Notes under the pieces: generated by a model
Told to the model about the DNA's origin: nothing
The model's database searches: none
What the model saw: only the letters and a program-made list of their open reading frames with translations
Program-made: the position numbers and the translations under genes
Origin: Anaerolineaceae bacterium
GTDB lineage: Bacteria > Chloroflexota > Anaerolineae > Anaerolineales > Anaerolineaceae
Assembly (NCBI GenBank): GCA_034430175.1
Contig: DAOUFI010000023.1
Coordinates: 16,592-80,591, forward strand
Reading direction: 5' to 3'
Length of the DNA stretch: 64,000 nt
Shown here: one piece after another, positions 5,188-62,171 of the stretch
Layout of the letters: every line of letters starts with the position of its first letter
How positions within the stretch are numbered: the first letter of the stretch is position 1

Positions 5188-5859
5188 TTAGAAGAGACTC
5201 AATTGTTCCGCTGGACCTTCTTCTGGTTCGGCAGGCGGCTCTTCTACCGGATTATCGATCTTTGGAGTTTGTTTGATGTCCTTTTTAACCTGTTCCAGGG
5301 CTTTTGGCAATAGTTGAAAATCAGCAATTACCTGGGGTTTCAAGGAAGGTTGATGCAAAGCTGCTGCCGGATGGAACATTGGCACGATCACCCGATTCTG
5401 AATCACGCGCGGTTTACCGTGGATCTCGCTGATGCGCGCGTTCGGTAGGAATTTACCCATCGAGTACCGTCCAAGCGTAACGATAACGCCGGGGTTGATG
5501 GCTTCGATCTGTTGGTCGAGATAAGTGCTACACGCGCTTAATTCTTCAGGCAAGGGATCCCGATTGCCAGGGGGACGGCACTTGACCACGTTGCAGATGA
5601 ACACGTTCTCGCGCTTCAAGCCGGCGGTTTCGAGCAACTCATCCAAGAACTTCCCAGCCTGACCAACGAAGGGGCGTCCCTGTTCGTTTTCATAGAAGCC
5701 TGGTCCTTCACCGATGAACATGAACTCGGCGTTGGCTGGGCCTTCTCCGGGTACGGACAACTTGCGTGAAAAATGCAAGGCGCATTTTTCACAGTTCGAT
5801 ACCTGTGCGGCGACACTCAATAGAACGTCGATTGCAGTCACGAGGAACCTCCCCTGCAA
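5188..5859 (-). CDS. uracil-DNA glycosylase, family 4
   Basis: Contains the CxxC cluster region (CEKCALH), the GEGPG motif followed by GRPFVGQAGKFLD, and HPAAAL near the C-terminus. Confidence 0.85.
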   Translation of the reverse strand: MQGRFLVTAIDVLLSVAAQVSNCEKCALHFSRKLSVPGEGPANAEFMFIGEGPGFYENEQGRPFVGQAGKFLDELLETAGLKRENVFICNVVKCRPPGNRDPLPEELSACSTYLDQQIEAINPGVIVTLGRYSMGKFLPNARISEIHGKPRVIQNRVIVPMFHPAAALHQPSLKPQVIADFQLLPKALEQVKKDIKQTPKIDNPVEEPPAEPEEGPAEQLSLF

Positions 5860-5884
5860 GGATATGTCAACCTCTAATTTTACC

Positions 5885-6394
5885 TTACCCTTGGGAATTC
5901 AACAGATCAGGATCGATTTTTTGCAGGCTCATAAGGATCGCGTCCTCATGGTTGTCTTGATAATAATGCGGACGCACACCGTCCTCCTGGTATCCCAGTT
6001 CGCGATAAAGTTGACGCGCCGCCGTGTTGCCTTTGCGCACTTCAAGGAAGGATACCGTCGCGCCTTCTTTTTGCGCTTCCAACAGCAGATGCGCCATCAA
6101 CTTGCGGCCGATTCCCAAACGGCGGAATTCGGGGGCAGATGCGATGGTGGCAATGTGGATCTCATCTACAATCAGCCAGCCGACAATCATGCCGGCGATC
6201 ACGCTATTCCCGGCGGCATCCTCCGTCTCGGCCACCCAGGCACGTGCTGCGTCGTTCTTTTCCACTTCATAATGGAAAGAGCTCTCTGGCCAGGGCAACG
6301 AGAAGGAAGCGCGGTCAATCTCGATCACCCGGGGTAGATCGGCGGGGGTCATTTTACGAATTTGGAGGGGGAAGGGAACTTGCGAGAGGCTCAA
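5885..6394 (-). CDS. rimI: ribosomal-protein-alanine N-acetyltransferase (GNAT)
   Basis: 169-aa GNAT with RRLGIGRKLM acetyl-CoA motif. It sits immediately downstream of tsaB and tsaE, the classic tsaE-tsaB-rimI arrangement, with a 4-nt overlap to tsaB. Confidence 0.8.
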   Translation of the reverse strand: MSLSQVPFPLQIRKMTPADLPRVIEIDRASFSLPWPESSFHYEVEKNDAARAWVAETEDAAGNSVIAGMIVGWLIVDEIHIATIASAPEFRRLGIGRKLMAHLLLEAQKEGATVSFLEVRKGNTAARQLYRELGYQEDGVRPHYYQDNHEDAILMSLQKIDPDLLNSQG

Positions 6395-17115: not shown

Positions 17116-17188
17116 GCCCCCATTGTCTAGTGGCCTAGGACGTGGCCCTCTCAAGGCCAAAACTCGGGTTCGAATCCCGATGGGGGCA
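17116..17188 (+). tRNA. tRNA-Glu (anticodon CUC)
   Basis: Cloverleaf folded by hand: acceptor GCCCCCA/TGGGGGC, D arm GTCT-AGTGGCCTA-GGAC, anticodon arm TGGCC-CTCTCAA-GGCCA, variable loop AAAC, T arm TCGGG-TTCGAAT-CCCGA, discriminator A. 73 nt, CCA not encoded. Confidence 0.9.
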
Positions 17189-26945: not shown

Positions 26946-28304
26946 ATGGAACAATCGCATGTTGAACCGACCGTGACCCCCGCGAAAGGGATGCGTACCT
27001 TTTTCACTATTTGGTCTGGTCAATTAATTTCCTTGCTCGGATCACAATTCACAGGATTTGCTCTGGGGGTGTGGGTGTACAGCCAAACCCACTCGGTAAT
27101 GATGCTGGCATTGGTGCAGGTGGCTCAGCAGGCACCATACATCCTGCTTTCTCCATTGGCCGGTGTACTTTCTGATCGCTGGAACCGTCGCACTGCCATG
27201 ATCGTCAGCGATTTTGGCTCAGGGCTGGCAGTGCTGGCCGTAGCCATTCTTTACCTGAGCGGGAACCTGCAAGCCTGGATGGTGATCCCGATCAACCTGT
27301 GGATGGCCACCTTCAATACTTTGATGTGGCCGGCCTTGACCGCATCAGTGACGCTGCTCGTACCCAAGGAGCAATTTGGACGGGCAAATGGTTTGGTGCA
27401 ATTGGGTGAAGCTATCCCGCAGATTGCCGGTCCAGCCCTGGCTGGGATGATGTACGTCACCATAAAAATGGGCAACATGGCTCTGATCGATTTTGGCACT
27501 TACGCGATTTCTGTGCTACTGATGCTCTTTTTTGTCCGCATTCCCACCCCGCCGAGGACGATTGATGGCGAAAAAGGCAAGGGGTCGATCTGGAAGGAAA
27601 TGCGTTTTGGCTGGGATTACATTGTTGCGCGCAAAGGATTGGTTGGATTGCTTCTCTTCTTTCTATCCACGAATTTCCTTTTTGGCATCATCGGCCCGTT
27701 GATCACCCCCTTGATCCTGGATAACTGGGACGCCAGTACGTTGGGTTGGTTGAGTACATTGATGGGGGTGGGCATGCTTGTGGGTACTTTGGTGATGAGC
27801 GCCTGGGGCGGTGGAAAGCGAAAAATTTTCCCATTGTTGATAAGCGGTGTTGTCGGAGGTCTATTCCTTGCCCTGACCGGGTTGCGCGCTTCTTTACCTT
27901 TGATCGCGATTGGTGGCGTAGGGATGATGTTGGTGATGCCAATCATGAACGCCTGCAGCCAGGCCATCTGGCAAGCCAAGGTTGCCCCTGATGTTCAGGG
28001 AAGGGTTTTTGCTGTGCGGCGAGCCATCGCCTGGTCAGCCGGTCTCATCGCGCCGTTGTTGGCAGCACCTCTCGCGGATAAGGTTTTCAAGCCGGCCATG
28101 ATCGCGGGCGGTTCTCTGACTGGAGTGCTCGGTCCAATCTTTGGGGTTGGCGCCGGTCGCGGTGTGGGCGTGCTGATCACGCTCGTTGGCTTGCTGAGCG
28201 TGATCGTCGCGTTGATCGGATTCATCGTTCCAACTGTGCGAGATGTCGAGATTGACCTGCCCGATTTTGAAACCGCTAGAGAGGTTGTCAAAACCGCGGA
28301 TTGA
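26946..28304 (+). CDS. MFS transporter (MFS_3/EntS-like)
   Basis: 12-TM, 452 aa, with an LSPLAGVLSDRWNRRTAMIVSD loop 2-3 motif typical of this MFS subgroup. Confidence 0.75.
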   Translation: MEQSHVEPTVTPAKGMRTFFTIWSGQLISLLGSQFTGFALGVWVYSQTHSVMMLALVQVAQQAPYILLSPLAGVLSDRWNRRTAMIVSDFGSGLAVLAVAILYLSGNLQAWMVIPINLWMATFNTLMWPALTASVTLLVPKEQFGRANGLVQLGEAIPQIAGPALAGMMYVTIKMGNMALIDFGTYAISVLLMLFFVRIPTPPRTIDGEKGKGSIWKEMRFGWDYIVARKGLVGLLLFFLSTNFLFGIIGPLITPLILDNWDASTLGWLSTLMGVGMLVGTLVMSAWGGGKRKIFPLLISGVVGGLFLALTGLRASLPLIAIGGVGMMLVMPIMNACSQAIWQAKVAPDVQGRVFAVRRAIAWSAGLIAPLLAAPLADKVFKPAMIAGGSLTGVLGPIFGVGAGRGVGVLITLVGLLSVIVALIGFIVPTVRDVEIDLPDFETAREVVKTAD

Positions 28305-28393
28305 TCGAACCTAATCAATAATTCAATCTCGCGTTGGGCTATCCAAGCGATTTGATGCAAAACGAATTCATATTTCGTTCTAAGTCTGTTCGA

Positions 28394-28422
28394 TTGAAAC
28401 CAAGGATTTTTCGCGCTATATT
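28394..28422 (+). promoter_or_regulatory. sigma70-type promoter of the c-di-GMP riboswitch array
   Basis: TTGAAA (28394-28399), a 17-nt spacer, then TATATT (28417-28422). The predicted TSS coincides with the first aptamer's P1 (about 28429). Confidence 0.6.
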
Positions 28423-28428
28423 GTTAAT

Positions 28429-28538
28429 GCACTCCGATAAAATGGCAAAGTCAGCAAAAGCTGGCGGCGCAAAGTCAAGGGTCTAAAGTGAGAACAGCGA
28501 TCCTCACCACGATAGCCTGACTGACCGAGAATAGTGAC
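28429..28538 (+). promoter_or_regulatory. c-di-GMP-I (GEMM-I) riboswitch aptamer, unit 1
   Basis: AUGGCAAA-GUCAGC-AAAA-GCUGGC-GGCGCAAAGUCAAGGGUCUAAAGUGAG...CUCACCACGAUAGCCUGACUGACCGAGA parallels V. cholerae Vc2 (GGGCAAACC..GAAA..GGGACGCAAAGCC..GGCCUAAACC...GGGGUUACCGAUGG). The P1 pairing CACU/AGUG closes the unit. Confidence 0.72.
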
Positions 28539-28543
28539 GTTAT

Positions 28544-28614
28544 GCGAAAGCAAACGGAACAAGTCCGTGATCTAAAATCATCTTAAGTTGATCAAGATGC
28601 CGGACAACCGAAGG
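28544..28614 (+). promoter_or_regulatory. divergent GEMM-I-like middle unit (degenerate aptamer or expression platform)
   Basis: GC-GAAA-GC mini hairpin, then AAACGGAACAA, then GUCCG-U-GAUC-UAAA-AUCA..UGAU-CAA-GAU-GC-CGGAC-AACCGAAGG. It shares the P-stem/UAAA-CAA internal loop and the 3' ACCGAAGG with units 1 and 3 but lacks CGCAAAG. Confidence 0.3.
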
Positions 28615-28702
28615 CTAACCTCGCGAAAGCCTGGAGCGCAAAGTCAAGGGCCTAAAACCAGAAGACAAAGGTCAAGGCAGCCTGACTACCGAAGAGTGCA
28701 TC
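28596..28702 (+). promoter_or_regulatory. c-di-GMP-I (GEMM-I) riboswitch aptamer, unit 3
   Basis: AAGGCUAA-CCUCGC-GAAA-GCCUGG-AGCGCAAAGUCAAGGGCCUAAAACC...GGUCAAGGCAGCCUGACUACCGAAGAG. A possible closing helix is GAUGC/GCAUC. It shares an identical 15-mer, GCGCAAAGUCAAGGG, with unit 1. Confidence 0.72.
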
Positions 28703-28713
28703 CATAAGCGATA

Positions 28714-28744
28714 AAGCGAACGAATTGCCGTTCGCTTTTTTTTC
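28714..28744 (+). terminator. intrinsic terminator ending the riboswitch array (likely its expression platform)
   Basis: Stem agcgaacg/cgttcgct followed by 9 T. A duplicated AAGCGA just upstream could form an alternative pairing. Read on the minus strand it may also serve the convergent dsrE-like gene (TTTAT only). Confidence 0.75.
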
Positions 28745-28776
28745 ACATTTTTAAGCTGATCAGTATACAATCCAGG

Positions 28777-29127
28777 TTAAAGGGATATGACCTTGCCAGC
28801 GCGACGCAACGCTTCTAAGATATCCGTCATACCGCCCACAATGCCCACTTTTACTTCGTCGGTCAAACCGAAGAACCCCAGACAGGTACTACAAAGGATC
28901 AATCTCACCCCTTTTTCTTCGAGTGATTGCAAAGAATCCAGCACCGGTGAACCAGTGACCGCCAGGCGCACGCCGTCCGTGTAGAAACAGATAGCTGCGG
29001 GCAGGATATTATTTTCATTCAAAAGTTTCAAATAGGTCGTCGCGAGCTTGATTTGTAGATCGGGGGCAGCTTCACCCATGCCATTGCGGGTGAAAAGAAT
29101 GACAGTGTCTGAATCGGGTATGGTCAT
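28777..29127 (-). CDS. DsrE/DsrF-like sulfur-relay family protein
   Basis: 116 aa with VILFTRNGMG at the N-terminus and a conserved Cys region LILCSTCLGFFG. A strong GGAGGAAAAT RBS precedes the start. Confidence 0.6.
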   Translation of the reverse strand: MTIPDSDTVILFTRNGMGEAAPDLQIKLATTYLKLLNENNILPAAICFYTDGVRLAVTGSPVLDSLQSLEEKGVRLILCSTCLGFFGLTDEVKVGIVGGMTDILEALRRAGKVISL

Positions 29128-29239
29128 ATTTTCCTCCTGGGTTGATTATGATGACTATTTGATTGATTTTATCATCCAAATTAATTGCAACCTCCGTCAG
29201 GCGATAACGTATATTTGATATATGGAAAAGGAGAGAGAA

Positions 29240-29461
29240 ATGACAGTTGAAGCAAACGAAAATCATGAGGAATGCGTTCACCATCATCACCACGGTCGAA
29301 GTGGTGGTGGGGATGCTGTCTACGGATTGGGCTTCATCGGGGCCGCCATCTACTTCATTGGTCATGCCGCCACATTCTGGCTGGGTGTTTTGGGTTTCCT
29401 CAAGGCACTTGTATGGCCAGTCTTTGCAGTGATGGGGCTGCTGAAATACCTTGGCCTTTAG
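29240..29461 (+). CDS. small His-rich two-TM membrane protein
   Basis: MTVEANENHEECVHHHHHGRSGGGDAVYGLGFIGAAIYFIGHAATFWLGVLGFLKALVWPVFAVMGLLKYLGL. ATG 29240 has a GGAGAGAGAA RBS and a clean terminator follows. The track start 29222 is less likely. Confidence 0.6.
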   Translation: MTVEANENHEECVHHHHHGRSGGGDAVYGLGFIGAAIYFIGHAATFWLGVLGFLKALVWPVFAVMGLLKYLGL

Positions 29462-62029: not shown

Positions 62030-62155
62030 AATACCCTCCGCCAGGGGAGGGTTGTGTGTTGATTCGTGAATTCCTCCGCCGGCATTATCCGGATCAGGTC
62101 ATGCGGGTCGAGGACTGTGCGTCCTCCTCTCAGCCCGGCGTTCGGGCTCCCCGTT
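62030..62155 (-). promoter_or_regulatory. TPP (THI-box) riboswitch with SD-sequestering/terminator hairpin
   Basis: On the minus strand, GGGGAGCCCGAACGCCGGGCUGAGAGGAGGACGCACAGUCCUCGACCCGCAUGACCUGAUCCGGAUAAUGCCGGCGGAGGAA carries the CUGAGA and ACCUGAUC(C/U)GGAUAAUGCCGGCG hallmarks. It is followed by CCCUCC-CCUGGC-GGAGGG-UAUUUUUUAUG. Confidence 0.9.
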
Positions 62156-62171
62156 CTGTTTGATTAAGCGC

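Follow-up and report, generated by a model that had tools for sequence, protein, structure and literature searches.

A contiguous array of GEMM-I aptamers closed by one shared helix: a candidate free-standing RNA in Anaerolineales

To our knowledge, every characterised riboswitch for c-di-GMP (cyclic diguanosine monophosphate) is a leader in which expression of the following gene is coupled to the binding of the ligand. A stretch of 64,000 nucleotides (nt) from an Anaerolineaceae bacterium (assembly GCA_034430175.1, contig DAOUFI010000023.1, positions 16,592 to 80,591), referred to here as the window, carries an array of c-di-GMP-I (GEMM-I) aptamers in a different setting. As a first-pass annotation made from the sequence alone had stated, no co-oriented gene follows directly after the terminator of this array; the next open reading frame (ORF) is a convergent DsrE-like gene (PF02635), and the first plus-strand gene downstream encodes a small protein. 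We put the chance at about even that the array is a free-standing structured RNA of about 315 nt rather than a leader that switches a downstream gene, and the comparative data favour what had been offered in the first-pass annotation as a fallback, namely a stand-alone c-di-GMP-binding RNA. All features are listed with their coordinates in Table 1.

The two GEMM-I units described in the first pass are real: a search with the Rfam model RF01051 gives exactly two matches, both above the gathering score and over the full model, and the negative control RF01786 (c-di-GMP-II) has no match even at E ≤ 10. A permissive Rfam scan of 28300-28800 yielded nothing further that was credible, c-di-GMP-II included. 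From established structural knowledge, we take the ligand contacts to be G20 (the G that precedes GC in GGCAAA), A47 (the first A in CGCAAAG) and C92 (the first C in ACCGA). In the cmscan alignment, these positions correspond to G28444, A28471 and C28525 in aptamer 1 and to G28613, A28640 and C28689 in aptamer 3, the second unit of the earlier description. Since each of the intact units has G at the G20 position, c-di-GMP is their predicted ligand. Between them lies a middle domain in which the features first noted are borne out, that is, the stem UCUAAAAUCA...UGAUCAAGA, the 3' ACCGAAGG and the loss of CGCAAAG. It contains a P2-like hairpin at 28538-28556 with a GAAA loop and a P3-like hairpin at 28563-28605, and its core motifs are altered, AGC-AAA to AGUGA and GACGCAAAG to GGAACAAG. 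Overlapping weaker matches are suppressed in whole-locus Rfam scans, as seen with the control locus L105, the central unit of which reaches 53.7 bits alone and is missed in the scan of the whole locus; the middle unit was therefore scanned separately. Scanned alone (28527-28612), it has no RF01051 match at E ≤ 10, nor did one appear in the 501-nt scan, and the idea of a third functional c-di-GMP-I aptamer at this place was rejected on these scans.

The origin of the middle domain becomes apparent from related arrays. Metagenomes were scanned for pairs of GEMM-I cores spaced by about 170 nt, which gave at least 120 stretches of two kinds. Those of class A have an intrinsic terminator in the linker and a ribosome-binding site after the second aptamer and are classical tandem riboswitches. 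In class B (about 19 loci) the "linker" of 79-89 nt is itself a GEMM-I aptamer, which makes these loci contiguous triple arrays with junctions of only 4-6 A-rich nucleotides between the units. The class-B promoter reads (A/C)TTGAA(A/T)-17-(C/G)AATAAT or GATAAT, with a conserved element just upstream of the -35 hexamer, and the class-B leader (..UUGCUC-CGA..) is complementary to the tail (..CCGAA-GAGCAA). The RuvB proteins encoded next to class-B arrays belong to clusters labelled Anaerolineales or Chloroflexota. The promoter, leader (AUGCACUC-CGAUAA) and tail (CCGAA-GAGUGCAU) of the window align with class B, and its middle unit has the same length as the class-B central aptamers and aligns with those of L128 and L164 (window AUCUAAAAUCAUCUUAAGUUGAUCAAGAUGCCGGACAACCGAAGGC, L128 GUCUAAAAUCAGCGCAAGUUGCUGAUCAAGACCGACCAGCUGACCGAAAGGC). 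The triple origin first suggested for the array is supported by this homology of its middle unit to the central aptamer of triple arrays. On this basis we define here a family of contiguous GEMM-I arrays with a shared P1, consisting of 19 metagenome arrays, the window and two orthologs of the window array; the window has the homologous promoter, the leader, three contiguous units, the pairing tail and a 3' hairpin. It departs from class B in its remodelled middle unit and in an ordinary terminator that replaces the conserved CAGGGAUGAC hairpin.

Of the three orthologs (the window, L207 and L210), the latter two were reached via close homologs of the major facilitator superfamily (MFS) protein encoded upstream of the array and of the small protein encoded downstream. 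In L207, whose MFS protein is 90% identical, the order is that of the window: MFS gene, array, terminator, convergent DsrE gene and small gene. In L210 the terminator is followed after about 55-60 nt by the small gene on the same strand, with no DsrE gene between them. No array was found in the more distant MFS_3 relatives (L208, L209, L215-L217) or in other small-protein loci (L211-L214). Measured from leader to tail, all three orthologs have an array core of 278 nt with zero indels, the middle unit being of equal length in each, and the identity is 94.6% between the window and L207 and 88.5% between the window and L210. For comparison, it is 42-49% at the fourfold sites of the MFS gene, 68% from the MFS stop to the -35 hexamer and 56-64% in the 45 nt past the closing helix. 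The closing helix, both middle-domain hairpins and the hairpins of units 1 and 3 are all present in the RNAalifold consensus of the three, with compensatory changes from U-A to C-G in P3 of aptamer 1 and from C-G to U-A in P3 of aptamer 3; in the middle domain, the hairpin pairs are maintained at two pairs via G-C / A.C / A-U series among the window, L207 and L210. These comparisons indicate that the whole 278-nt core, middle domain included, is under strong purifying selection, and the gap-free conservation of the core together with the retained middle hairpins argues that the middle domain is maintained as a structure and that the array is no decaying relic.

A functionless remnant of a triple riboswitch, decaying after the loss of the gene that it regulated, would agree with the middle aptamer being without an Rfam signature and with the absence of a co-oriented gene past the terminator in the window. 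However, such a remnant should be compared with a core that has stayed free of indels and 88-95% identical while synonymous sites are near saturation, with compensatory changes that preserve the middle-domain hairpins and with promoter hexamers and a strong terminator that are retained in all three orthologs, so that we regard decay as the least likely of the readings and give it very little credence. For the middle domain, a local hairpin ACGGA/UCCGU from the minimum free energy (MFE) fold was also considered and dropped, as it is lost in L207 (ACGAA); the P3-like stem GUCCG/CGGAC is preferred.

The units of the array are held together by one outer helix, formed by 28427-28434 with 28694-28701 in both the MFE fold and the consensus of the three orthologs, which encloses aptamer 1, the remodelled middle domain and aptamer 3. 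The junctions between the window units (CCGAGAAUAGU, ACCGAAGGC) are too short for each unit to have its own P1 helix. The P1 (GAUGC/GCAUC) that the first-pass annotation had put forward for the last aptamer did not hold, because it is unconserved, L210 reading GGCGG there; the conserved partner of GCAU is the 5' end of the transcript and not GAUGC. Covariation was evaluated over 19 distinct arrays, which were anchored by sequence on the invariant CUC-CG and AA-GAG; this favours the register and was addressed by controls in which the partner strand was slid. In the closing helix 83.6% of the cells are in standard pairs, as opposed to 31-48% with the partner slid by 1-3 columns, and the covariation score is 0.30 as opposed to 0.10 or less in the controls, the observed value being reached in none of 500 shuffles. 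The fourth pair is formed in every array, as GC in 11, AU in 5 and GU in 3 of them, and the fifth is U-A in 9, C-G in 3 and U-G in 2 arrays and unpaired in 5.

A separate observation concerns the leader. In L207 (4690-4700) the CGCAAAG of unit 3 reads UGCAAAG, whereby GGAGUGCA and the leader UGCACUCC become complementary throughout; L207 switches to this pairing in its MFE fold, and the window has the same pairing with one mismatch. According to the folding, it could be an alternative, ligand-free conformation.

If the array were a cis-acting transcriptional riboswitch, c-di-GMP would alter termination at 28713-28743, and read-through would reach the small gene (29240), running in this genome antisense across the dsrE-like gene that has become interposed. 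GEMM-I aptamers usually act in cis via terminators, and a strong terminator is present, as annotated in the first pass (hairpin 28713-28738, then Ts), although its GC core has 7 and not 8 base pairs (28716-28722 with 28729-28735, extendable by 3 A-U pairs) and its U run is 8 and not 9 nt long (28736-28743). It begins 11 nt past the closing helix without any overlap between the two, and its pair probability in full-length folds is 0.95-1.0, the outermost pairs having 0.72 (window, A-U) and 0.91 (L207). The terminators of the three orthologs lie at an equal distance from the closing helix and have unrelated stem sequences (AAAGCGAACG-loop-CGUUCGCUUU; GAAGGGCGC-GUGA-GCGCCCUU; AAGAGACGC-GUAA-GCGUCUU; each then U8), a comparison by which the terminator is conserved in function only and not in sequence. 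Since the terminator stems are unrelated, whereas the three orthologs have the same closing-helix strands and an almost unchanged aptamer 3, the stems have no conserved pairing partner there, and conserved antiterminator pairing is unlikely on these alignments. Folding of the three orthologs predicted no antiterminator, the 5' arm not being consistently sequestered in transcripts cut before the 3' arm, and no aptamer-competing terminator or structure sequestering a ribosome-binding site was found in silico in the three; in these models termination appears to be constitutive. The consensus scan detected no plus-strand terminator-like site within 28529-28609. A likeness of 28548-28557 (AAAGCAAACG) to the 5' arm of the terminator was put down to chance, as it is inconsistent across the orthologs and the wrong arm would be sequestered, and the terminator mimicries in L207 and L210, which are likewise inconsistent among the orthologs, were treated in the same way.

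A cis-acting attenuator for the small gene is nevertheless the main rival because of the layout in L210, where the array terminator is followed so closely by the co-oriented small gene. In addition, two further contigs (ERZ22666135 and 3300075153), for which the gene layout alone was compared, have an MFS gene and, on the same strand after a gap of about 490 nt, a gene for 72-73 amino acids, and the array is linked to the small gene in every ortholog found. Read-through into the small gene, as the earlier annotation had considered, may thus occur with regard to L210; however, a conserved promoter-like motif of its own precedes the gene in all contexts examined. In the window, L207, L210, L211 and L213 the element CGTATAT(A/T) is kept some 30 nt ahead of the ATG, a TTGCAA-like hexamer lies 19 nt upstream of that element in the window, L207 and L210, and the gene keeps its own upstream motif even in genomes that have no array. 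By its upstream sequence, the small gene appears to have its own promoter. Read-through in the window would, moreover, need to traverse 351 nt of a convergent gene, and the dsrE arrangement is not conserved. Together with the unrelated terminator stems next to near-identical aptamers and P1 strands and with the lack of a predicted antiterminator, this leads us to consider a cis-acting switch unlikely, though it comes before all other alternatives to a free-standing RNA. Within the window interval 29185-29239, the motif upstream of the small gene reads CGTATAT..ATATA. Elsewhere the small membrane protein gene adjoins ArsR, ArsC (LMWPc), Acr3 (SBF) and MFS_3 genes (L211 2325-2500; L215), company that hints at a metal- or metalloid-related role.

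The first-pass annotation had also envisaged that c-di-GMP-dependent read-through produces an antisense RNA on the dsrE-like gene, and had asked for the synteny of array and convergent dsrE-like gene in related genomes. The DsrE-like protein has about 2000 homologs, from which 80 loci of other GTDB species were taken, all of them Chloroflexota or Anaerolineae metagenome-assembled genomes. They were searched with a covariance model derived from aptamers 1 and 3 of the window, which replaced a loose regular expression rich in false positives. No GEMM-I element was found within 4 kb of DsrE in any of the 80 loci, and none of the 80 has MFS, small-gene or psuG neighbours beside DsrE. The same model detects diverse, unrelated GEMM-I elements elsewhere at 50-80 bits, and the negative result is therefore informative. 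With this synteny absent and with an array in L210 that has no dsrE beside it, dsrE is ruled out as a conserved antisense target. As the arrangement is unconserved, the terminators are unrelated, no antiterminator is predicted and the downstream genes have promoters of their own, the antisense idea finds no support. The downstream neighbour of the array simply varies: in the window and L207 it is the convergent dsrE-like gene, in L210 the small gene. A promoter-like sequence TTCACA-18-TACAAT at 28742-28771 (+) was noticed directly past the terminator, directed antisense into the dsrE-like gene; L207 has no equivalent interval, the dsrE stop following directly after the terminator there.

The 5' end of the proposed free-standing RNA is defined by a promoter. 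The TTGAAA-17-TATATT described in the first pass was recovered by a consensus scan, and both hexamers are kept in the orthologs (identical in L207, TTGAAA/TATAGT in L210) and in the wider family, in which about 17 related arrays have homologous -35 and -10 hexamers at an equal distance from the closing helix. Transcription is predicted to begin right at this helix, on its 5' strand (28427-28434). Next to the array promoter, the window clade has a palindrome embedded in GATGCAAAACGAATTCATATTTCGTTCTA..CTGTTCGATTGAAA; in its region the window, L207 and L210 have the block GATGCAAAACG(A/T)ATTCAT(A/C)TTTCGTTCTA..CTGTTCGATTGAAA in common. The related class-B arrays have TAGAACAnnTGTTnGATTGAA at the place of the palindrome, just upstream of the -35 hexamer. 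This conserved element looks like the binding site of a shared transcription factor, and the palindrome suggests that the amount of the array RNA is itself regulated.

The promoter also bears on whether the array could be a 3' untranslated region (3'-UTR) element of the upstream MFS_3 exporter messenger RNA (mRNA), in which case transcripts would end at the array terminator and c-di-GMP would alter the stability of the mRNA. No terminator-like site was found by the consensus scan between the MFS stop (28304) and the array, and family arrays are regularly found 65-137 nt after a co-oriented exporter gene (HlyD-like or MFS_3). However, the conserved promoter positions the transcription start exactly at the closing helix, and the family of the upstream gene differs by clade, arrays following HlyD-like, MFS_3 or DUF3048 genes. 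Furthermore, in at least two of the related loci, L115 and L149, a strong terminator parts the HlyD-like gene from the array promoter, and a 3'-UTR element therefore seems to us quite improbable. On the other side of the class-B arrays, a TATAAT of its own precedes the ATG of the next gene by 7-8 nt (ruvB and MBOAT loci), from which ruvB appears to be leaderless in these loci. Given the neighbours' own promoters and the upstream terminators in L115 and L149, the arrays behave, as far as their sequence context tells, as separate transcription units in varied surroundings, as expected of a self-contained gene.

Several known systems resemble the array in part. In comparison with Vc2 of Vibrio cholerae and the RF01051 model, units 1 and 3 match the full model, the contact nucleotides and the P2 and P3 hairpins; in contrast to Vc2, the array units are without their own P1, one helix closing all of them, there is no expression platform overlapping an aptamer, and in the window no gene lies directly downstream. 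Tandem c-di-GMP-I riboswitches are well known, with 347 doublets and 12 triplets counted in one review, and those described have one aptamer and one platform each and act pseudo-cooperatively (PMC9481103, PMC12452182, PMC4759541). The Bc3-5 type likewise has several GEMM-I units in a row on one transcript, but these are complete riboswitches with their own terminators upstream of a regulated gene, whereas the window units are contiguous, with no terminator between them, one shared closing helix and one terminator (PMC4759541, PMC9481103). The tandem glycine riboswitch likewise places aptamers for one ligand side by side on a single RNA, with no intervening platform; it belongs to a different aptamer class, and its two aptamers control a defined expression platform and gene, whereas no ligand-coupled platform was found in the window array. 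Riboswitch-linked RNAs that act beyond their own mRNA are SreA/SreB (S-adenosylmethionine, Listeria), EutX/Rli55 and AspocR (B12). With these the array shares an aptamer on a short, terminated transcript that is more than the leader of the next gene. Unlike the array, they are terminated leaders or have a separate effector part (protein-binding or antisense); the window clade conserves the aptamer array alone. The AspocR-type arrangement of aptamer, conditional terminator and convergent target is not what the comparison gave, since dsrE is present in the window and L207 and not in L210, and the antisense layout is thus unconserved.

For the free-standing RNA we infer the following function. 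Constitutive termination would yield a discrete RNA that binds two c-di-GMP molecules, and ligand binding would lock the closing helix and, with it, the RNA's 5' end. The output would be either that c-di-GMP is sequestered (buffered) or that the RNA changes with the ligand in its stability or its availability to partners. Several points weigh against this. The promoter, the 3' end and constitutive termination are predictions, as is ligand binding by GEMM-I units that have no P1 of their own, and kinetic switches can escape in-silico folding. The array in L210 is co-oriented with the small gene and has the layout of a classical riboswitch, which the two further contigs probably share as judged from their gene layout. 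A free-standing c-di-GMP-binding RNA is undescribed in the literature searched, the coverage of which was incomplete, and it has no precedent or known partner there; nor did this literature hold anything relevant on contiguous GEMM-I units sharing one P1 or on GEMM in Chloroflexi.

Beyond the single locus, we tentatively propose, with less confidence than for the window RNA itself, a gene family of Anaerolineales comprising free-standing RNAs with 2-3 GEMM-I aptamers head to tail in one shared P1, with their own regulated promoter and terminator, which would act as a c-di-GMP sink or sensor. The window copy would be a derived member, its central aptamer now being structural or of different specificity. 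If this is true, an aptamer-only RNA gene with one closing helix and a constitutive terminator would represent a different use of the GEMM-I fold, which could serve as a nucleic-acid receptor or buffer for a second messenger, and GEMM-I units would be able to function when no P1 helix belongs to the single unit. The existence of three natural orthologs that differ by compensatory changes and of relatives with three intact units makes the RNA of about 315 nt directly testable.

Relatives of the window array that have A at the G20 position might also bind 3',3'-cyclic GMP-AMP (cGAMP). In most of the triple arrays compared here (L096, L105, L110, L115, L117, L119, L128, L139, L149, L154, L162 and L164), units 1 and 2 have A at this position (AGAGCAAAA, AAAAGCAAAA) and unit 3 has G. 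An A at this position is associated with the recognition of c-AMP-GMP in the GEMM-Ib type (PMC9481103), with which units 1 and 2 of these arrays agree, in contrast to the two intact window units with their G20. As A20 is the change linked to 3',3'-cGAMP recognition, one RNA with mixed A20 and G20 units may read two cyclic dinucleotides.

Table 1. Features of the array locus and its neighbourhood (window coordinates).
Feature	Position	Strand	Basis or remark
MFS_3/MFS_1 transporter gene	26946-28304	+	Upstream neighbour of the array
Palindrome AACGAA-N7-TTCGTT	28361-28379	+	About 59 nt upstream of the predicted start; possible transcription-factor site
Sigma-70-type array promoter TTGAAA-17-TATATT	28394-28422	+	Consensus scan; 10/12 consensus positions
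Closing (outer, shared P1) helix, 5' strand AUGCACUC	28427-28434	+	Pairs with 28694-28701
c-di-GMP-I aptamer 1	28434-28528	+	RF01051, 65.6 bits (cutoff 35), full model matched
Middle domain, remodelled GEMM-I aptamer homolog	28529-28609	+	Aligns with central aptamers of L128 and L164
c-di-GMP-I aptamer 3	28603-28693	+	RF01051, 58.8 bits (cutoff 35), full model matched
Closing helix, 3' strand GAGUGCAU	28694-28701	+	Identical in window, L207 and L210
Intrinsic terminator	28713-28743	+	Stem up to 10 bp, 6-nt loop, U8; consensus scan
DsrE/YedF-like gene, convergent, outside the RNA unit	28777-29127	-	PF02635, E 2e-8
Promoter-like motif of the small gene, TTGCAA (29185-29190)-N19-TATATT (29210-29215)	29185-29215	+	Comparison of loci
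Small His-rich two-helix membrane protein gene, ATG 29240	29240-29461	+	First plus-strand gene past the array; 4781 homologs

The same array locus is found unaltered on several contigs of one Anaerolineae population (L001-L006, L132). Signatures of GGDEF, EAL and PilZ were absent from the window in a crude motif scan. The whole window has four matches in Rfam at gathering thresholds, two of which are the RF01051 units; a thiamine pyrophosphate riboswitch aptamer (RF00059) lies at 62054-62163 (-) with 71 bits at a cutoff of 54.3, and a transfer RNA gene (RF00005) at 17116-17188 (+) with 62.9 bits.

Some further observations were made on the related arrays. The hairpin CAGGGAUGAC..GUCAUCCCUG of class B, which is not present in the window clade, has a strongly conserved stem and lies 10-20 nt after the closing helix. 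It has one compensatory variant (L141), and its stem is similar to P2 of unit 3 (AUCAGGGAAACCUGAUGAC). The U tail behind it tends to be weak, and another hairpin with a U tract often comes next. In L105, L115 and L119, MBOAT (AlgI-like) genes stand behind a retained ruvB promoter and a short 5' fragment of ruvB (ATGAGCAAAC..CCCGCCCG), which suggests a rearrangement at the start of ruvB. RF03167 (c-di-GMP-I-GGC) scores better than RF01051 for one unit each in L122 (1460-1556 (+), central) and L152 (291-385 (+)). The longest series is found in L087 at 5315-6045 (+), where about 730 nt contain seven GEMM-I matches, which are separated by linkers of 12-16 nt and one of 113 nt and end 72 nt before an ORF of 920 amino acids. 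Their number exceeds the triplets found in the literature, and L138 has four units.

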